From an uncultured archaeon (GTDB lineage: Archaea; Asgardarchaeota; Lokiarchaeia; Sigyniarchaeales; SOKP01): 28,353 nucleotides of DNA. The DNA lies in the NCBI GenBank assembly GCA_964493715.1, contig CAZBPC010000006.1, positions 61,292-89,644 on the forward strand, written 5' to 3'. The stretch's first letter is position 1, and every line of letters begins with the position of its first letter. Made by a program: the position numbers and the translations under genes. Positions 1,636 through 25,084 of this stretch are shown here, piece by piece. The notes under the pieces are model-generated. The model was not told the DNA's origin and made no database searches. It saw only the letters and a list, made by a program, of their open reading frames with translations.

Positions 1636-3063
1636 TTATTTAAGATGGTTCTTAGTAATTCGACTTAATTCTTTAAAAAGAATATCATCAATAGGTTTAA
1701 TGGCTGGTTTAGACTCCAATTTTTTTGCCTCAATTTTAGCTCTTTTTCTCGCTGAATTCGCTCCAGCATCATTCCAAGCATCGCGTGACATCCTATCAAT
1801 GACAGGTCCCGCAATAAAGAATTCTTTTCTAAATAGATTCAATGTTGATGGATGTGAGAGCAATTCTTCTGTTTTATTATAATCTTTTAGAATATCTAAA
1901 GCGAAAGGAGTTCCTCGATCCTCAATGCCTTTTAAAAACCATTTTACCATTCCAATGACCTCATTATCGATTATTAATTTCTCCACACTTTGGGTTGATT
2001 CAAAATCAAGCATGCCTGGACCAGATACCATGTTAATCCCTGCAAGTCCTGCTAAGAGAGCACCCATTCCTCCTTCAAATCCCGCTTGAGCATCTGGGAT
2101 TTTAGAATCACTCAAACTCATATAAGCATGGGTAGGCATTTTTAATAATTTACCAATTTCCACATCTCCCAGATTAATCATCATTGTTTCAATTGCGCCC
2201 ATAGGAGTAGTTCCATATTTCATATCTAATATTGCAGGAGATCCTCCCCAAATCAAAGGAGCACCCGTTTTAGCTAATTGGGCAATAACAACACCTGCTA
2301 AACATTCTGCACAATGTTGAGTTATTGATCCAATTAGGGTAATTGGAGCATTTGCACCTGCGAGGGGCATTGAAACGAATTCAGAAGGAATCATGCTTCT
2401 TGCAGCATCAATGAGTGATTGAGTGGTTAAATCTGACCATTTTAGTGGAGGGCTTGGACATGCATCAAATATAGCAAGTGGTTTTCTTGCCAGATCATCT
2501 TCAGACAATCTACAAGATAACAGAAGTTCTCTCATTATTGAGAAGCTCTCCTTTTTAAATGTTCCTGTAATGACTGGTTTGTAGCAATTGGACAATGCAA
2601 TAAAAAGTCTATGCCAATCTTGGGCTTCTTTGGGCACATCTTGATAAACCAAAGCCGTGCTTTGCGCTTCAATATATTTTAAATGATCAACTATTTTTGA
2701 AAAACGAATAAAATCATTCAAAGTTGCTTCTCTAGTTTCTCCAGAGTTTTCGTCTAAAATCAGAATTGCCGCGGAACCGGGATCAAAGTGTACATTGTCA
2801 TCTTTAAGAGTCATGTGTTCCTTCCCTTCTCTATCATATAAAACAATTTCATGTGGAACAGATTTTAAACACTTTTCCACTAAATCTGGAGGAATCAAGA
2901 ACGATAACCCTTCATTATTTACTCCTTGATTTTTTAATAACTCTCTTGCTTGTTTATTTTCCACAAATACTCCAAAAGTTTCCAATATCTCTTTTGCTTC
3001 ACTTAATATTGAAATCTTGTGTTCTTCATCTAACACTTTTATTTTTGGTCTTAATATTGACAT
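1636..3063 (-). CDS. Trimethylamine methyltransferase (MttB) superfamily protein, non-pyrrolysine (MtgB-like quaternary-amine:corrinoid methyltransferase)
   Basis: SPPLKW, PLAGANAPITLIGS, SDSKIPDAQAGFE and GPGMLD motifs. The residue before SDSK, where Pyl sits in MttB, is Leu; no in-frame TAG. Confidence 0.9.
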   Translation of the reverse strand: MSILRPKIKVLDEEHKISILSEAKEILETFGVFVENKQARELLKNQGVNNEGLSFLIPPDLVEKCLKSVPHEIVLYDREGKEHMTLKDDNVHFDPGSAAILILDENSGETREATLNDFIRFSKIVDHLKYIEAQSTALVYQDVPKEAQDWHRLFIALSNCYKPVITGTFKKESFSIMRELLLSCRLSEDDLARKPLAIFDACPSPPLKWSDLTTQSLIDAARSMIPSEFVSMPLAGANAPITLIGSITQHCAECLAGVVIAQLAKTGAPLIWGGSPAILDMKYGTTPMGAIETMMINLGDVEIGKLLKMPTHAYMSLSDSKIPDAQAGFEGGMGALLAGLAGINMVSGPGMLDFESTQSVEKLIIDNEVIGMVKWFLKGIEDRGTPFALDILKDYNKTEELLSHPSTLNLFRKEFFIAGPVIDRMSRDAWNDAGANSARKRAKIEAKKLESKPAIKPIDDILFKELSRITKNHLK

Positions 3064-8773: not shown

Positions 8774-9388
8774 TTAGGTCAAGTTATTCTTGATATTTTC
8801 TCGAACTTCAAAATCCATAACATTAGGATATCGTTTTTTAAATTCAAAAATTAAACTTTTACAAGAACTACAAATGGGACCTTCTGATACAAGTAATGCC
8901 TTACCTTCTTTTAATTTGTTGAGTTCCCATAATTTAGCCATTGTTACAATCAATTTTCGTTCACTATGATACCATGGTTCATCTTCTTCATTAGTTTCTT
9001 GAGCCGGAAACATTTTTGAGATGACTGCGAAAGGATCGATTATTACTTCAGCTGGCTTATCTTTAGGTTCCACTACTGCTGTGCCAGGTATGAATTGCTT
9101 TCCTCTCAAGGCTAGTATATAACCCTTTTGAACGGTTTCATTAGAAAATTTGTAATTAAACTTCACGAATGCCACATTTCGATCTAGGTCCTTCCAATTT
9201 TTACTTTTTCTCACTTGAGTTATAATGGTTTTATCAGTTAATTTCGCATTTTTGTCCAAATTTAGAGCATTACGCAATTCTTCATCAATCTTCTTTTCAC
9301 TTATATCTTTGGAAGAAACAATCCAAGTCATTCTATTTTGATAAGCTTCTATTTCTTCTGGTATATTAAAGTCTTTTTTAAATGTCAT
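8774..9388 (-). CDS. Zn-dependent nucleotide/nucleic-acid deaminase-domain protein (polymorphic-toxin deaminase-like)
   Basis: HSERKL (HxE), LVSEGPICSSCK (PxCxxC), FEFKKRYPNV tail and an RNVAFV strand. Confidence 0.72.
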   Translation of the reverse strand: MTFKKDFNIPEEIEAYQNRMTWIVSSKDISEKKIDEELRNALNLDKNAKLTDKTIITQVRKSKNWKDLDRNVAFVKFNYKFSNETVQKGYILALRGKQFIPGTAVVEPKDKPAEVIIDPFAVISKMFPAQETNEEDEPWYHSERKLIVTMAKLWELNKLKEGKALLVSEGPICSSCKSLIFEFKKRYPNVMDFEVRENIKNNLT

Positions 9389-12296: not shown

Positions 12297-13703
12297 ATGA
12301 TTGAGAGTCAAAATGTAAAATTCAATAAGATCCTCTGGCCGATATATTTTCTTAATGGGTTTCAAAGTATGTTATGGGGAGGTATTACTTTTCTAATAGT
12401 TCCTCTTTCTAGAATTATGTGGCCAAGTGATCCTACACATGCTTTAGAGATGGGGATAATTATCACAACTTTATCATGGTCTGCTTCAATTTCAGGATTA
12501 CTATTTGGACATTTTATAGACCGGTACTCTAGAAAAAAAATTCTAATCATCTTATCTATTTTTAGGGGATCTTCAGCGTTAATGCTTGGATTCGGAATAC
12601 AAGGAGGAGGTTATACCACTTGGATTTATTTCTTAATATTCGTAGCTATCTTTGGAGTATTTGGAGGACTTAGTTGGCCTACTATCATTTCATTGACTAA
12701 TGATATTGTACCTAAAGAGCAACGTTCTAGTTTCTTTGGCGTTTATGAACTCATAAGATCTTTGACCATGACCTTTGGGTTCCTTATAGGTGCATTTCTG
12801 GTTCAAATAGGGTTTTGGAGACTATTTTTTTGGAGTGCAGGAGTAGGCATGCTAATATTTGGATTCATTTTGGTCCTGCACATCAATGAACCAAAAAGAG
12901 GGGCTCAACAAGAAGAACTTACTTTCATTCTCCAAGAAGACATTCCTTATGAATTTAAGATCAATCGTGAAATGATGAAAAAAACAATGTTAAGTAAAAC
13001 AAACGTTGCTGCTTTAGTAGAGGGGGTTTTTACATGGATTCTAATGGGATCAATCAATTTTTTAATTCTGTATTTAATACAAAATGAGCCTCATAATATA
13101 TCAGAATTCTCCACAAGCATTTTTATGGTTTGTTTTGGTTTAAGTGGAGGTGTTGTTGGACAATTGGGTTTGGCAAGATTAAGTGATAGATTTGCAAGAA
13201 AACACATGAAAGCCCGAATTTATATGATATTAATCGCTATAATCGGAGGTATTATTAGTTTTGTGCTTTTCTTTTTCATTCCATGGCCCCATTTATCTGA
13301 TGAACAAGGAAAAGATGTGGGATTTCTTATGACCTTACCAATTATATGGCTAATGGGTTCATTGTTCTTCTTCTCACGGTCAATATTTTCATTGTATATA
13401 GTGAACCAATCACCTGTTTTACAGCAAATAAACTTGCCTGAAGCACAAGGTCAGATCGTTTCATGGAACCAATTTTTAGAAAATCTAGGGCGTGGCATAG
13501 GGCCCTCTTTAAGTGGGATTCTTCTTGTAGTAACTTTTTATAATTATCAGCTTACAATTTTATTCATCACCTTATGCATACTTCCAGGAATTATCTTATG
13601 GTCATTTGCTTTGAAATGGCTTACTCAAGATACCAATCAAATAAGAGAAATACTCAGAAAACGAGCAATTACTTTACAAGAACCTAAAGAAAGTACTTAT
13701 TAA
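12297..13703 (+). CDS. MFS transporter
   Basis: About 12 TM segments; motif A GHFIDRYSRKK, DIVPKEQRS, repeat LSDRF. Confidence 0.92.
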   Translation: MIESQNVKFNKILWPIYFLNGFQSMLWGGITFLIVPLSRIMWPSDPTHALEMGIIITTLSWSASISGLLFGHFIDRYSRKKILIILSIFRGSSALMLGFGIQGGGYTTWIYFLIFVAIFGVFGGLSWPTIISLTNDIVPKEQRSSFFGVYELIRSLTMTFGFLIGAFLVQIGFWRLFFWSAGVGMLIFGFILVLHINEPKRGAQQEELTFILQEDIPYEFKINREMMKKTMLSKTNVAALVEGVFTWILMGSINFLILYLIQNEPHNISEFSTSIFMVCFGLSGGVVGQLGLARLSDRFARKHMKARIYMILIAIIGGIISFVLFFFIPWPHLSDEQGKDVGFLMTLPIIWLMGSLFFFSRSIFSLYIVNQSPVLQQINLPEAQGQIVSWNQFLENLGRGIGPSLSGILLVVTFYNYQLTILFITLCILPGIILWSFALKWLTQDTNQIREILRKRAITLQEPKESTY

Positions 13704-14547: not shown

Positions 14548-16164
14548 TTGAAAATGAAATCAATGCATGAATTAGGTGTTCCAGTTCCCACTAAACGTTC
14601 TTTAGTGGTAAGAAACATAAAAGACGTTACTAAGAAGCAAAGAGAAATTGCCTTAAAAGAGACTGAGTATAGCATGTTTTCATTTCCTGCAGATATGCTT
14701 GTATTAGATTTTCTTTCTGATAGCGGAACAACATCAATGACTGATCTTCAATGGTCAGCCATTTTTCACGGAGATGAATCATATGGACGTAATAAAGGAT
14801 ATTATGTTTTGTTAGATGCCATTAGAGACATATTCGAACGGGGAGAACATACTAAAAAATCAATCCAGCTGATACTTTCGGGTGAAACGAATGTACAAAA
14901 ACTTATGGATGAGTTGTATCTAACTTCCTTTAATGGAGGATTTGTAAATGGTGGAATTTATCAATTAGAACGTCCTAATGCTTTCATTGTTCCTCAAGGT
15001 AGGTGTGCGGAATATTTATTATTCTCAACGATAGCTCAACTTAAACGAGAATTAAATAATAATAAATTATGGTATATCCCAAATAATGGTCATTTTGACA
15101 CAACAGAGGCAAATATTGCAGCAAACGGAATGCATCCTGTAAATTTATTCTCTACAAATTTATTTGAAGATTTTAATCATCTCGAGATGGATAAAAGCAA
15201 CCCGTTTAAGGGAAATATGGAAATTAAGGAATTGGAACAATTTGTTCAAGAAAAAGGAGCAGAATGTATTCCTTTAATTTATCTCACAATCACAAATAAC
15301 ACAGCTGCTGGACAGCCCGTATCCATGAAGAATGTAAAGGCAGTGCAAAAAATAGCTAAAAATTATGAAATCCCTCTTTTTTTTGATGCCTGTCGCTTTG
15401 CAGAAAATGCTATCTTTATTAAAAATTTTGAAGAAGGATATAAAAATAAATCAATTCCCGAAATTGTAAAAGAAATGTTTTCTTATGCAGATGGATTTAC
15501 CATTAGTTTCAAGAAAGATGGATTGGCAAATATGGGTGGTGGTTTATTCTTTAAAGATAGGGGAATATTTCATCGAAATTTCTCACTCAATGGAGATATT
15601 GGAATTCGATTAAAAGAAAAACAAATTTTAACTTTTGGTAATGATAGCTACGGAGGAATGTCCGGTAGGGACATTATGGCATTAGCTGTTGGATTGTATG
15701 AAATAGTTAAAGAACCCTATCTGAATGAAAGAATTCGTCAAGTGAGAGGTTTTGCCAGAAAATTAGCGATGAATGGCGTACCCGTAATCTTACCCGCTGG
15801 AGGACACGCGGTATACATAAATATGGATAAATTTTTTGAAAATACTGATATGAAGATTTCAGATTTCGGAGGCGTTGGGTTTACAATTGAATTAGTGAGA
15901 CTTTATGGCATAAGAGGCGCAGAACTAGGTCCTTTTGCTTTTGAATGGGATAACAAATCTGAAGAAGAGAGAAAAGGAATTTTACATTTAGTGCGCTTTG
16001 CTGTTCCCCGAAATGTTTATGATGCATCACATATTGATTACGCGGTTGCTGCAATAACAGAACTTTACAAAAATAAAGAAAGCATTCCAAAAGTCAGAGT
16101 TTCTCGAGGAGCAAAATTAAGATTACGACATTTTCAATCTGGACTTCAACCAATTTATAAATAA
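14548..16164 (+). CDS. Tryptophanase / tyrosine phenol-lyase family PLP beta-eliminating lyase
   Basis: DFLSDSGT, GDESY, PQGR.AE, HFDTT, NNTAAGQPVSM, DACRFAEN, PLP-lysine motif SFKKDG, YGGMSGRD, GGHAVY. Confidence 0.9.
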   Translation: MKMKSMHELGVPVPTKRSLVVRNIKDVTKKQREIALKETEYSMFSFPADMLVLDFLSDSGTTSMTDLQWSAIFHGDESYGRNKGYYVLLDAIRDIFERGEHTKKSIQLILSGETNVQKLMDELYLTSFNGGFVNGGIYQLERPNAFIVPQGRCAEYLLFSTIAQLKRELNNNKLWYIPNNGHFDTTEANIAANGMHPVNLFSTNLFEDFNHLEMDKSNPFKGNMEIKELEQFVQEKGAECIPLIYLTITNNTAAGQPVSMKNVKAVQKIAKNYEIPLFFDACRFAENAIFIKNFEEGYKNKSIPEIVKEMFSYADGFTISFKKDGLANMGGGLFFKDRGIFHRNFSLNGDIGIRLKEKQILTFGNDSYGGMSGRDIMALAVGLYEIVKEPYLNERIRQVRGFARKLAMNGVPVILPAGGHAVYINMDKFFENTDMKISDFGGVGFTIELVRLYGIRGAELGPFAFEWDNKSEEERKGILHLVRFAVPRNVYDASHIDYAVAAITELYKNKESIPKVRVSRGAKLRLRHFQSGLQPIYK

Positions 16165-18912: not shown

Positions 18913-19512
18913 ATGATCAAAATGAGTAAAGAATCAAGTGATATCGTTTTTCAAGGTCGGACTGAAGCGATTTATAAGGTAATTGTTATTGGAGACCCGG
19001 CAGTTGGTAAAACTAGCCTTCTCACGAAATTTGCAAAGAATAAATTCGAGGAACGTTACATCGCAACAGTCGGTGTTAATATAGTCAAAGAACCAATAAC
19101 TCTGACAAATAGAGATGCTACAATAAATCTAATGATGTGGGACGTGGCAGGACAATTGGAATACGAGATTCTCGTGCCAGTCTAACCGCAATTTTACATG
19201 CTACACCGTCCCTACTTCAATGGAGCGGATGCAATGATTTTAGTCTTTGACGTCACGCGCTCAAGCACTTTCAGTAACATTAATAACTGGTATAATACAG
19301 CAGTAAAATATGGCTTGAGCCATATACCACGAATTCTTGTTGGCAACAAAATTGATCTAAAGGATGATCGAAAGATTATCTTGCCAATGGCAGAACATTT
19401 AAGTGAAAAACTTGATGCTCCATATTACGAAACTTCTGCTCTAACTGGAAAGAATGTGAAGGAAGTATTTAATAAAATCGCAGAACTTGTATACGAATCA
19501 AAATCGTCTTAA
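18913..19512 (+). CDS. Rab-like small GTPase encoded in two exons, join(18913..19155,19186..19512); 189 aa spliced (186 aa from ATG 18922)
   Basis: The two ORF-track fragments are in the same frame. Exon 1 has G1 GDPAVGKT, G2 ATVG and G3 WDVAGQ. Exon 2 has PQFYMLHRPYFNGAD..LVFDVT, G4 GNKID and G5 ETSAL. Removing 30 nt restores normal Rab switch II spacing. Confidence 0.88.
19156..19185 (+). other. Putative 30-nt bulge-helix-bulge/loop (tRNA-endonuclease-type) mRNA intron
   Basis: Insert TTGGAATACGAGATTCTCGTGCCAGTCTAA. Central 4-bp helix GGAC(19150-53)/GTCT(19180-83). 5' bulge AAT(19154-56). Intron stem TGG/CCA plus TACGAG/CTCGTG with an ATT loop. 3' bulge AAC(19184-86). Cutting after the 2nd nt of each bulge excises exactly 19156..19185. 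Confidence 0.8.
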
Positions 19513-20469: not shown

Positions 20470-21357
20470 ATGATACAATACATCAATGTCTTAACTAAGG
20501 ATGGAAAGAGTCTATTATTTCGAAATTATGGTAGTTCGGATGTTGATAGAGATTTGTTAGCAGGATTTTTAAGCGCCTTTTCTGGATTTATGAAGGAAAT
20601 TAGCCAAAGTGATATAAGATCAACAGCAACAGACGAGTTTAAATATTATTATACGATTATCGAGGATATAATTATTGTAGTGTGTACTGATTTAGAAGAA
20701 GACGATGCTTCAATTAATTCAAAAATAACAACAATCAAAATCAAGTTCATTGAAAAATTCGGAGAAATCATAGCTAACGGTTCATGGGCGGGTAATCGAG
20801 CAGTTTTCAATAGTTTTGAAAAGGATATTGACGACATAATACTTGGTGCGATAAAAGTTTCGATTATAGGACTTGGAGGTGTGGGCAAGACTACTTTATT
20901 ACATTTGATATGTGGGAAGGATATTGACCTTGAATATATTCCCACGATCAATGTAGACATCACCTCCTTTAATAATTTTGAAGGGATTTATAGATCCGTA
21001 ATTTTTTGGGATTTTGCAGGGCAAAAAAATTTTCGCTCATTATGGAGAAGCTTGCTTGATAATACAGATATTGCCTTATTAGTATTAGATTCGAGCTTTG
21101 AAAATGTAAATCATAGCAAAGAAATTATAAAAGATATTCTTGATAAATATTACAATGACATTCTGGTAATTGGCATAGCCAATAAACAAGATCTTCCTAA
21201 TCGCCTTACACCTGAATTTTGCGAGCGAATTATATCCAAAGCAGATCGACAACCACCAATAAAAGTCCATGGAATGATTGCTATAAATGAAGTCTATCGA
21301 GAAAAAATACATGCAATAGTTAGGGATGCCATTAAACAAGTCTATCCCAATAGTTAA
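20470..21357 (+). CDS. Longin-like domain fused to an Arf/Rab-like small GTPase
   Basis: N-terminal MIQYINVLTKDGKSLLFRNY...LLAGFLSAFSGFMKEI (longin/sigma-adaptin-like pattern). C-terminal G1 GLGGVGKT, PTI, WDFAGQ, NKQD. Confidence 0.88.
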   Translation: MIQYINVLTKDGKSLLFRNYGSSDVDRDLLAGFLSAFSGFMKEISQSDIRSTATDEFKYYYTIIEDIIIVVCTDLEEDDASINSKITTIKIKFIEKFGEIIANGSWAGNRAVFNSFEKDIDDIILGAIKVSIIGLGGVGKTTLLHLICGKDIDLEYIPTINVDITSFNNFEGIYRSVIFWDFAGQKNFRSLWRSLLDNTDIALLVLDSSFENVNHSKEIIKDILDKYYNDILVIGIANKQDLPNRLTPEFCERIISKADRQPPIKVHGMIAINEVYREKIHAIVRDAIKQVYPNS

Positions 21358-21471: not shown

Positions 21472-23229
21472 ATGGTGTCTAGTCTGATAGATTTTGAAAT
21501 AGAAGAAATTAATAGTTATAAGAAAGACGATCGAGATACAATTCTTTTGCCAGAGTTAACTGAAGAAGAAAAACGAATTATAGATCCAATAGTAGCTCCA
21601 ACGTCAGGTTTAAGGATTCAAATATTTGATATCAGAGAGAAAAATCTCTATTTCTTAACACAAAGAAAGTTATTTCTATTTTTACGAGTCTTTAAAGCAA
21701 TTAGCTTGAAATATAAAAAATTGAAGAACAACAAAAATTTGAATGTTTTGATTGTAACTGATAATCGTCCTAGTAAGGATATATTGCTCCAATATTGTTC
21801 TGAAATTTTAGCAAGTGATGGATTCACTATATACCATCAAGAAGATGTTAAAGGAGAGTCAAAACTATCTTCTCCCTACGCAGCAGCTTCAGTCGCATTA
21901 CTCAAGGATATCAATCTAATATTAATGCTAACGGCGTCTCATAATGATTTATCATGGAACGGTATCAAATTTTACATTGATTATCCCATGCCCATGTCAG
22001 GTGATATGTTCAAAGAAATCTCTAAGTGTGCCATGGAATTAAATGAAATCACTCTGAAAAGGGATTATACTCCAGAAATAGTTAATGCAGAAAAAATAAA
22101 TAACGAACATGTGAAGCAATTATTATCAGATGTATTAGAAATTAAGAGTATTAACGGAAAAAATATAGTAATATGGCCTTATCTTGGAAAAGCTAGAGGA
22201 ATTGTGAATTTATTTAAGGATTATGGGGCAAATGTCATTCTTATAGATGAAGAAATCAATCCTCCAAACCCATTAAAAGAATTAAGACCAGAAAAATTGC
22301 AGAAAATAATGAATGAAAATCATTCTGATCTTGCTTTATTACTAGACGCAGATAGAGATAGAATAGCATTGTACACTAAGCAAAATGGTGAATACTACTT
22401 TTATATCCCAAACGAAATTTATTCCGCATTGCATAATATATTAGCAAAGAGTTATGGTAAAAAGATTTTTAATGTTAGGACCATTCCAAGTGATTTAAGA
22501 GGAGATAATTTAAGTTTCCTTAATATATTGACTGGCGTAGGTTATAAACATTTAGGTATTATTCTTTATTTCTTATTTGACGTGGAAGTTGAAAAATCGA
22601 AAGTCGATTCAGCTATTCTCTATTTAGAGGATAAAAATAAGAATTTAATAAAAATAGATAACCCAACTCTTCTGAAAGAGAAAATTTCAGATTTTTTAAA
22701 CCAAATCAAATCAAAGTTCTTTGATCGAAATTGGCTCATTGTTATGTGGGAGGAATCAGGAGGACACACTTTAAATGTCTTTAAAATTAATCCTGAAAAA
22801 GATCATGGGGAATATAAGTTCATAACTAAATTTCCACTAATAGCAGATAAATATCCCGTTACTGCTCTAGTTCTCATAGCTGAGTTAATTTCACGGGGTC
22901 ATGTTATTTCCGAATCAATAAATTGGTCAATAAAAGGAATTAATCAAACAATCCCCGCTATTGACGAAGAAAAGGTCAGAATTATGAATAACTTCAGTAA
23001 AAATGACGATCAAAATATAACGATTGCAGGGAAGAGTTATAATGTAAAAGCCTTATCAGACAATATAGGCAACGTAGACATATATCAATTAAAAAGCCAA
23101 AATTCGACTCTTTATTTTCGCCCGAGTGGAACTGGACCGGAGGTTCGGTTTTATATTTTTGGGAATCGAGAAACTCATCTTGCTGAGATTGGAGAAGTTC
23201 AAAAATATGTTAGTGAGAATTACAAATGA
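21472..23229 (+). CDS. Alpha-D-phosphohexomutase (PGM/PMM/GlmM superfamily)
   Basis: TSGLR, TASHN (catalytic Ser), DADRDR (metal loop), WEESGG, RPSGTGP. Confidence 0.9.
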   Translation: MVSSLIDFEIEEINSYKKDDRDTILLPELTEEEKRIIDPIVAPTSGLRIQIFDIREKNLYFLTQRKLFLFLRVFKAISLKYKKLKNNKNLNVLIVTDNRPSKDILLQYCSEILASDGFTIYHQEDVKGESKLSSPYAAASVALLKDINLILMLTASHNDLSWNGIKFYIDYPMPMSGDMFKEISKCAMELNEITLKRDYTPEIVNAEKINNEHVKQLLSDVLEIKSINGKNIVIWPYLGKARGIVNLFKDYGANVILIDEEINPPNPLKELRPEKLQKIMNENHSDLALLLDADRDRIALYTKQNGEYYFYIPNEIYSALHNILAKSYGKKIFNVRTIPSDLRGDNLSFLNILTGVGYKHLGIILYFLFDVEVEKSKVDSAILYLEDKNKNLIKIDNPTLLKEKISDFLNQIKSKFFDRNWLIVMWEESGGHTLNVFKINPEKDHGEYKFITKFPLIADKYPVTALVLIAELISRGHVISESINWSIKGINQTIPAIDEEKVRIMNNFSKNDDQNITIAGKSYNVKALSDNIGNVDIYQLKSQNSTLYFRPSGTGPEVRFYIFGNRETHLAEIGEVQKYVSENYK

Positions 23230-24896: not shown

Positions 24897-25084
24897 TTTT
24901 CGACCAACTTGTACAATTCGATATTTAGATTAACATGTATATTTATTAATTTTGGTTAAATTTTTTTTTCTATTTCAAGATATCTAGTTCTATATTATAA
25001 ATTTATGTGCAATAAATAATTAAAACTACTTAACTAAAATCCTTTCACTGGATATTAATATAATAGGAAATTGAGTAAATTAGC

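Follow-up and report, generated by a model that had tools for sequence, protein, structure and literature searches.

A Predicted tRNA-Type Intron of 30 Nucleotides in the Coding Sequence of an Asgard Ras-Family GTPase, and Similar Inserts in Other Protein Genes of the Genome

The Split GTPase Gene

Analysis of a 28,353-nucleotide (nt) stretch of DNA from an uncultured archaeon of the Promethearchaeota (Asgardarchaeota; Lokiarchaeia; Sigyniarchaeales; SOKP01), hereafter the window (assembly GCA_964493715.1, contig CAZBPC010000006.1, positions 61,292 to 89,644 of the forward strand), identified a Ras-family GTPase gene on the + strand whose coding sequence is interrupted by 30 nt that are very probably an intron of the archaeal tRNA type. 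According to the list of open reading frames (ORFs) and their translations, the gene opens with an ORF at 18913-19185, closed by a TAA stop at 19183-19185, and its frame resumes at 19186, where it reads PQFYMLHRPYFNGAD, and runs to a stop at 19510-19512. The insert (window 19156-19185) is in frame, lies immediately 3' of WDVAGQ and reads LEYEILVPV followed by the stop, as the first-pass annotation of this DNA had described in placing a stop-ending, in-frame insert of 30 nt directly after the switch-II Gln; the ORFs, their translation and the split Pfam match all bear this out. The upstream piece matches positions 1-58 of the Pfam Ras profile and the downstream piece positions 60-160, and the insert thus interrupts a single domain.

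18913..19155, + strand: exon 1 of the small GTPase, G1 to G3 motifs, ending in ...WDVAGQ; Pfam Ras 1-58, Roc 1-66
19156..19185, + strand: predicted intron, 30 nt, in frame, ending in TAA; boundaries by the bulge-helix-bulge (BHB) cut rule
19186..19512, + strand: exon 2 of the GTPase, PQFYMLHRPYF... through G4 and G5; stop at 19510-19512; Pfam Ras 60-160

Removal of 19156-19185 yields WDVAGQPQFYMLHRPYF, the uninterrupted form of relatives, and the predicted junction peptide of the spliced GTPase is WDVAGQPQFYMLHR, while the unspliced reading frame encodes a fragment of 90 aa. Both junctions are preceded by AA, and the boundaries can be slid by up to 2 nt with the product unchanged; the second ATG, at 18922, may be the true start of the gene. 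Rfam and ARAGORN searches of the window detected no RNA gene at the insert site, and no donor copy of the 30-nt insert was found in the genome. A stretch at C21:24463-24478, identical at 16/16 nt to the first 16 nt of the insert (E 0.013), lies in a coding region reading LLEYEI and was judged to be a chance match.

Predicted RNA Fold of the Insert

The core of the fold proposed in the first-pass annotation is the minimum free energy (MFE) structure, in which a helix between exon and intron (19150-53/19180-83, with the pairs G.U, G-C, A-U, and C-G) is followed by a bulge (19154-56) and by two intron stems (19157-59/19177-79 and 19162-67/19171-76). This structure contains the strict half (HBh') of a BHB motif, with a central helix of 4 bp separated by a bulge of 3 nt from a helix of the intron.

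19150..19153, + strand: 5' strand of helix H, exon GGAC, pairing with 19180-19183 in the MFE structure; H pairs are paired in 90.4% of cells of the alignment described below
19154..19156, + strand: 5' three-nt bulge AAU, predicted cut 19155/19156
19157..19179, + strand: intron hairpin h', 3 bp (19157-59/19177-79), AA bulge, 6 bp (19162-67/19171-76), AUU loop
19180..19183, + strand: 3' strand of helix H, intron GUCU, from the MFE structure and pair counts
19184..19186, + strand: 3' splice-site bulge or loop AAC, predicted cut 19185/19186, the relaxed half of the motif

A stretch of 49 nt folds at -17.2 kcal/mol (z -3.13; 2/200 shuffles as good) and the core alone at -10.3 kcal/mol; the signal is weaker in a stretch of 81 nt (z -1.90; 8/200 shuffles as good). 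Cuts at 19155/19156 and 19185/19186, the positions that the first-pass annotation had predicted, agree with the homology of the protein, since the cut rule, which places a cut behind the second nt of each bulge, yields exactly the uninterrupted sequence of the relatives.

The Same Site in Related Genomes

In what follows G000 denotes the source genome, other G numbers denote related genomes and L numbers denote loci or contigs. Homologs of the GTPase were detected in all of the related genomes (60/60). Of the 29 best loci within the genus, 28 have the motif W[DE]x[AS]GQPQFY[ML]LHRPY without a break, in 32 gene copies whose open frames measure 186-251 aa; the remaining same-genus locus, L034, falls outside the motif pattern and is uncounted as continuous, being listed as an open frame of 232 aa without stops. 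A scan of one genome per species gave 67 loci, titled Promethearchaeota or Promethearchaeia (Asgard), and 59 copies have the downstream motif, 55 of them continuous (51 with the strict pattern, 4 as continuous variants) and 4 with an insert at the GTPase site. These same-site inserts measure 30 nt in L168, L183, and L192 and 33 nt in L204.

Regarding metagenomes, a degenerate pattern of the two exon flanks with a gap of 27-36 nt, scanned against metagenome contigs, recovered 14 contigs with inserts of 30-31 nt at the GTPase site. Records other than the window that carry a homologous same-site insert number 17. The window intron itself is carried at 29/30 identity by L239, L240, L242, and L243, in which the single change, U19162 to C, converts a U.G pair to C-G. 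An in-frame stop is present in every distinct same-site insert (13/13).

A tree of the downstream exon (106 columns, 56 rows) is poorly resolved, also at the position of G000; L168, L183, and L192 fall, together with 15 intron-less copies, in a clade with support of 100/98, which implies repeated precise loss of the insert.

Two further observations concern GTPase copies. In L204 the downstream exon reaches stops soon after PQFYMLHKPY, which may point to another insert, to a frameshift or to decay of this copy. In the window, a neighboring gene at 20470-21357 (+) encodes a protein of 295 aa in which an N-terminal domain is fused to an Arf/Ras-like GTPase (WDFAGQ), and the equivalent site is uninterrupted there.

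Co-variation and Selection

The 13 distinct same-site versions were aligned in a register consisting of helix H, the first three h' pairs and three exon-exon pairs. In this register 86.9% of cells are paired, vs. 22.3-46.2% when the 3' partners are slid (13 sequences). Cells with a double change number 19, compared with 4.4 +/- 1.7 in shuffles (0/500 reach 19), and the covariation score is 0.462 vs. 0.128 in shuffles (0/500); as the compared sequences are related, the shuffle counts overstate significance and are taken as supportive, not as probabilities. Each of the first three h' pairs is changed on both sides, with 94.9% of cells paired, and the third H pair is A-U in nine sequences, G-C in one and U-A in one. 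In the exon, a silent change of the Gly codon from GGA to GGG or GGU is compensated by a change of the intron U to C or A. Compensatory pairing was likewise seen in a smaller earlier set of 5 same-site sequences. The compensatory base changes among orthologous inserts, which the first-pass annotation had proposed looking for, were therefore found, and it is in 13 versions that the pairing co-varies.

Regarding selection, comparison of G000 with L240, L242, and L243 shows exons with 88-89% protein identity that differ at 46-67% of synonymous sites (pS 0.46-0.67), with a ratio of nonsynonymous to synonymous change (dN/dS) of 0.05-0.11 in both exons and of 0.05-0.06 in exon 2. Among themselves, L168, L183, and L192 have pS of 0.63-0.71 and dN/dS of 0.05-0.08, with 6-10 differences in the 30 intron positions. 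By these measures the putative intron is far more constrained than silent sites, and the gene is under purifying selection with the intron in place. Exons that have diverged under purifying selection around an intron conserved at 29/30 rule out a recent dead insertion as well as an assembly artefact.

Splicing Enzymes Encoded in the Genome

Two genes of the EndA family (PF01974/PF02778) are present in the genome, at C5:37733-38356 and C58:18440-19057. The first encodes a protein of 207 aa whose closest match is the catalytic alpha subunit of Aeropyrum pernix EndA (3p1z_B, E 1e-36); this alpha-like protein keeps the Tyr, His, and Lys residues, aligns without gaps through the Crenarchaea-specific loop and has K and R equivalent to K44 and R46. 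In the product of the second, of 205 aa, Ser occupies the position of the catalytic His, a substitution that a structural beta subunit would be expected to show. PMC3241643 attributes to the Crenarchaea-specific loop the cleavage of bulge-helix-loop (BHL) and non-canonical introns, and PMC5829648 describes an (alpha-beta)2 EndA with an L1 loop in Asgard archaea and assigns the cutting of relaxed motifs only to the (alpha-beta)2 and epsilon2 types. We infer that the source genome encodes an alpha-beta EndA heterotetramer with this relaxed-motif specificity. A gene for RtcB (PF01139) was detected at C2:10967-12309(-), with 484.5 + 54.2 bits. With regard to the EndA type and the ligase, both of which the first-pass annotation had left to be identified, alpha and beta EndA and RtcB are thus all encoded.

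Similar Inserts in Other Protein Genes

Motif scanning, Pfam contiguity and comparison with relatives revealed 15 inserts in 11 protein genes of the genome.

Window 19156-19185, + strand: GTPase, 30 nt; same-site comparison in relatives
C2:12136-12164, - strand: RtcB, 29 nt; locus L003 about 2667-2695; Pfam split 47/48
C44:26027-26056: leucyl-tRNA synthetase (LeuRS), 30 nt; continuous in G017, G032, and G025; shared with G023 at 27/30
C76:5211-5240, - strand: elongation factor 2 (EF-2), insert a, 30 nt; continuous in G017
C76:5334-5364, - strand: EF-2, insert b, 31 nt; inside AHID/HGKTT (P-loop); continuous in G017
C39:8748-8777: NadE, 30 nt; profile split 143/144; frames of relatives 255-273 aa
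C28:22400-22430, ~22709-22738, and 23007-23036: thiolase, three inserts of 31, 30, and 30 nt
C17:13937-13974: DnaG, 38 nt; 34-38 nt in 5/5 relatives examined
C2:119236-119265: alpha/beta hydrolase, 30 nt; absent in 3 relatives, present in G023
C53:2033-2062, - strand: thiamine pyrophosphate (TPP) enzyme, 30 nt; absent in 4 relatives
C145:299-328, - strand: thiolase-like protein, 30 nt; continuous in G017
C65:15793-15822: DeoC aldolase, insert a, 30 nt; no stop, perfect HBh'
C65:~15893-15924: DeoC aldolase, insert b, 32 nt; no good BHB

The helix between exon and intron has 4/4 or 3/4 pairs in all listed inserts but one, and the inserts typically follow the pattern 1 + 9 bp + 5-nt loop + 9 bp + 4 + 2 = 30 nt. 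The BHB cut rule gives the junction inferred from homology in RtcB, LeuRS, EF-2 (both inserts), NadE, the thiolases, the hydrolase, the TPP enzyme, DnaG, and aldolase insert a. Aldolase insert b (GAVGV..GRNIFQ), which shifts the frame and has a 7-bp hairpin, shows no acceptable exon-intron helix in the BHB register and is the sole misfit. Nearly all of the inserts outside the GTPase, RtcB, and DnaG lie inside highly conserved motifs (P-loop, active sites), which may be a bias of detection or a real preference of site.

The RtcB insert shifts the frame and lies between GGVGY and DINCGV, with a helix UUGG/CCAA, a 3-nt bulge and a 9-bp hairpin. Matches to RtcB are present in 57/60 genomes, split at 47/48 only in G000 and G001, and 49 matches span 1-426 in one frame; the two RtcB introns are identical at 28/29 positions, with exon 2 showing synonymous divergence (dS) of 0.40 and dN/dS of 0.12. 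The DnaG insert (AIFGQ/TEGLL) was detected in all genomes examined (6/6) at lengths of 34-38 nt, with invariant ends, 5' AGATAA and 3' ATCGGCTAA, and a variable middle, and looks like an old, genus-wide mRNA intron.

A motif-free comparison over ~1.15 Mb of G017, about 30% of that relative, found 6 inserts of G000 without a counterpart in G017 and 4 inserts of G017 without a counterpart in G000, which suggests some 20 inserts per genome with lineage-specific turnover. Events of this census at C41:~9083-9110 and C67:~13259-13319 turned out to be the end of one gene and the start of another and are not introns, and several in-frame insertions of 18-60 nt without stops were treated as ordinary indels.

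A genome-wide scan for BHB geometry combined with ORF rescue, which in this genome of 31% G+C was swamped by adjacent genes, served to nominate candidates only. The nominee at C2:103148-103173 was rejected, SRP54 being continuous there in another frame, as was that at C10:8171-8199, which has no family on either side. At C26:29052-29088 the downstream piece matches SecY from profile position 9 and the upstream piece is without a match, and at C28:34412-34441 only the upstream piece has a match, to VWA_CoxE.

Regarding tRNA genes, ARAGORN reported 27, of which 12 have introns, several of them of 29-30 nt, in a genome whose completeness is estimated at 100%; multiple or non-canonical introns probably conceal many tRNA genes. 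Judged by eye, a tRNA-Thr intron on C4 has an exon-intron helix, a hairpin and a 3' end of the form ...NNNNAA, like the mRNA inserts.

Elsewhere in G017, the ortholog (L106 about 23477) of the window ORF near 25079 (+) (C6 position 86370) has a stop-containing insert of 33 nt, between LFEGLVPERLGI and MGSGIGICWAGL, which is absent in the window, and further inserts of 33, 30, and 42 nt were seen in that genome, one of them directly after the P-loop GHIDHGK of a gene resembling EF-1-alpha. The window also contains, at 2016-2115 (-), a match to Rfam PYLIS_3 (the pyrrolysine insertion sequence of mttB; 55 bits vs. a cut-off of 38), which suggests that a pyrrolysine-containing methyltransferase gene is present in the source Asgard genome.

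Alternative Explanations of the Insert

Since the stop leaves unspliced RNA without full-length protein in all 13 same-site inserts, and the site is the catalytic switch II region, splicing could in principle be regulated and act as an on/off switch for the GTPase by analogy with HAC1/XBP1, as the first-pass annotation had suggested. We regard this as unlikely. Similar inserts interrupt RtcB, LeuRS, EF-2, NadE, DnaG, and metabolic enzymes, one insert of the class (C65:15793-15822) is without any stop, and at the GTPase site the insert is patchy (4/59 copies), and in the tree intron-less sisters adjoin genes that carry it; a regulator that the cell needed would not disappear with such frequency. 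No sensor or regulated nuclease came to light, none having been sought. The regulatory claim accordingly finds no support, and the patchy occurrence among close relatives and in housekeeping genes accords better with micro-introns of a heritable or selfish kind than with a dedicated regulator. The insert might instead be retained, either in a dead gene or in one that yields two polypeptides (residues 1-90 and a C-terminal half from the Met codon at 19198) which reassemble. An ATG does lie 4 codons after the insert, but a dead gene is excluded by the dN/dS of both exons over the synonymous divergence given above, a split protein leaves the 29/30 conservation of the intron and the co-variation of helix and exon unexplained, and the downstream pieces of the frame-shifted RtcB (29 nt, GGVGY/DINCG) and EF-2 (31 nt, P-loop) have no start codon at the junction, all of which makes retention very improbable.

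It is more doubtful still that ribosomes hop over the insert by programmed translational bypassing. The size of the insert and its internal hairpin resemble bypass elements, and the CAA at 19153-55 recurs at 19189-91; a landing there, however, would delete the Pro-Gln kept in the uninterrupted copies (55/59), the last exon codon, compared by eye, never equals the last intron codon in the five phase-0 inserts (GTPase, LeuRS, EF-2 a, NadE, and C145), and co-variation of the exon with the 3' end of the intron in the BHB register is unneeded for bypassing. An artefact of assembly or sequencing is scarcely conceivable. The exact 40-mer of the window has 0 matches in the metagenome contig collection, as an artefact might, but the intron recurs, with one change, between diverged exons in four independent metagenome contigs, 13 further records have homologous same-site inserts, and the RtcB and LeuRS inserts recur in the assemblies G001 and G023.

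The Favored Explanation

Window 19156-19185 is thus very probably a 30-nt archaeal tRNA-type intron in the coding sequence of a Ras-family GTPase of the Promethearchaeota, spliced by EndA and RtcB and belonging to a set of micro-introns of the genus. The proposal of the first-pass annotation, a BHB/BHL intron interrupting the mRNA of a Ras-superfamily GTPase from an Asgard archaeon, is supported by the restored reading frame, co-variation, selection, the encoded enzymes and the Promethearchaeota relatives. In the pre-mRNA, the exon GGAC would pair with the GUCU at the 3' end of the intron, and the 3-nt bulge and intron hairpin would complete the strict HBh' half, with the 3' splice site lying in a relaxed loop. 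An EndA heterotetramer that combines alpha (catalytic) with beta (structural) subunits and has the relaxed-motif loop would make its cuts behind A19155 and A19185, after which RtcB would ligate the exons to give ...WDVAGQ/PQFYMLHRPYF... and the full-length GTPase; RNA left unspliced would give the 90-aa fragment. The intron would belong to a population of ~30-nt micro-introns in the protein and tRNA genes of the genus, which would pass by inheritance, stay strongly conserved in lineages that keep them and have been lost precisely in many others.

Several results weigh against this explanation, in addition to the 40-mer without a match and the relatedness of the aligned sequences. The exon-side closure (C19148-G19188 and G19147-C19189) that completed the fold in the first-pass annotation brings no gain in stability (-10.1 vs. 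-10.3 kcal/mol for the core), the MFE structure pairs 19144-47 with 19186-89 instead (-17.0), leaving a 2x2 internal loop at the 3' site, and the exon-exon pair adjoining the 3' bulge is open in 8/13 same-site sequences. The strict hBHBh' form, in which a second 3-nt bulge is closed by an exon-exon helix, is accordingly absent; the core of that fold stands and its closure does not, and for these reasons the GTPase intron is, on the predicted fold, assigned to the relaxed HBh'/BHL form and not to the strict bulge-helix-bulge. In the co-variation analysis, pairs with any double change number 4 vs. 2.6 in shuffles, a value matched by 53/500. Regarding the wider class, the genome scan gave 19 candidates at lengths 27-33 and E <= -6 vs. 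10-12 in frame-shifted decoys, and 13 vs. 7-9 after an extra filter; given this modest excess, the class of micro-introns rests on homology and not on the scan statistic. RtcB, which is required for ligation, is itself interrupted, and its mRNA would need the ligase in order to mature. Finally, cleavage and ligation in the cell are inferred from the DNA sequence.

Beyond the GTPase, it appears on balance probable that this genus of Promethearchaeota routinely splices mRNAs by the tRNA-splicing machinery, with 15-30 heritable micro-introns of ~30 nt per genome, located mostly in the best-conserved motifs of essential genes (P-loops and switch II, and for RtcB, LeuRS, NadE, and DnaG the active site), which would be gained, structurally constrained and precisely lost by lineage. 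One mechanism would then apparently serve many genes, essential ones included, in the archaeal group closest to eukaryotes. This would give a definite example, open to test, of mRNA splicing without a spliceosome in an Asgard lineage, together with natural series of presence and absence from which the gain and precise loss of introns can be studied. The order of splicing and translation in a cell without a nucleus also comes into question: if the reading is true, translation must tolerate or await mRNA splicing in the closest relatives of eukaryotes, which would make it a pre-spliceosomal example of the difficulty to which the nucleus is often regarded as the solution. For annotation, the consequence is that gene callers will report RtcB, EF-2, LeuRS, DnaG, and the GTPase as truncated or split.

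Comparison With Known Systems

Translational bypassing is known from gene 60 of phage T4 and from the 27-55-nt elements ("byps") of some yeast mitochondria. Like these elements, the inserts described here are short, contain hairpins, interrupt ORFs and would not end up in protein; unlike them, they have no matching take-off and landing codons, and the pairing that co-varies is that of the BHB helix.

In HAC1/XBP1 splicing, Ire1 cuts two stem-loops in a stress response and an RNA ligase, RtcB in animals, joins the products. The likeness lies in the non-spliceosomal excision of a short mRNA intron followed by joining by a ligase, and the difference in a BHB-like core instead of twin loops and in the predicted nuclease, EndA. 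In SOS splicing, as PMC12779559 describes it, DNA transposons are removed from animal mRNAs with RtcB in a central role. There too an inserted element leaves the mRNA after its ends base-pair, but those are kilobase transposons of animals whose inverted terminal repeats trigger the removal, whereas the inserts here measure 30 nt and pair with the exon.

Asgard non-canonical tRNA introns are treated, for tRNA genes only and with mRNA introns going unmentioned in the text consulted, in PMC11291895 and in a preprint (10.64898/2026.10.13.758758), the latter also giving two EndA paralogs in 44/60 genomes. The predicted machinery is the same, and tRNA introns of 29-30 nt are present in the source genome; unlike in those cases, the host RNA here is a messenger, so that reading frame and the timing of translation matter.

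BHB introns in pre-mRNA are described for cbf5 in Crenarchaeota (Watanabe 2002, Yoshinari 2006, and Yokobori 2009, cited in PMC5829648; PMC2738675). Full-text literature searches found such introns only for crenarchaeal cbf5, and the Asgard intron papers among their results dealt only with tRNA genes; within that scope, the remark in the first-pass annotation that introns of this type had not been described for Asgard GTPases holds, no Asgard report having been found. As in crenarchaeal cbf5, the host has a hetero-oligomeric endonuclease and the intron is gained and lost among related species. Unlike in cbf5, the hosts are Promethearchaeota (Asgard), many genes are concerned, several of them with 2-3 inserts, the inserts have a uniform length of ~30 nt, and the gene for the ligase is itself among those interrupted.

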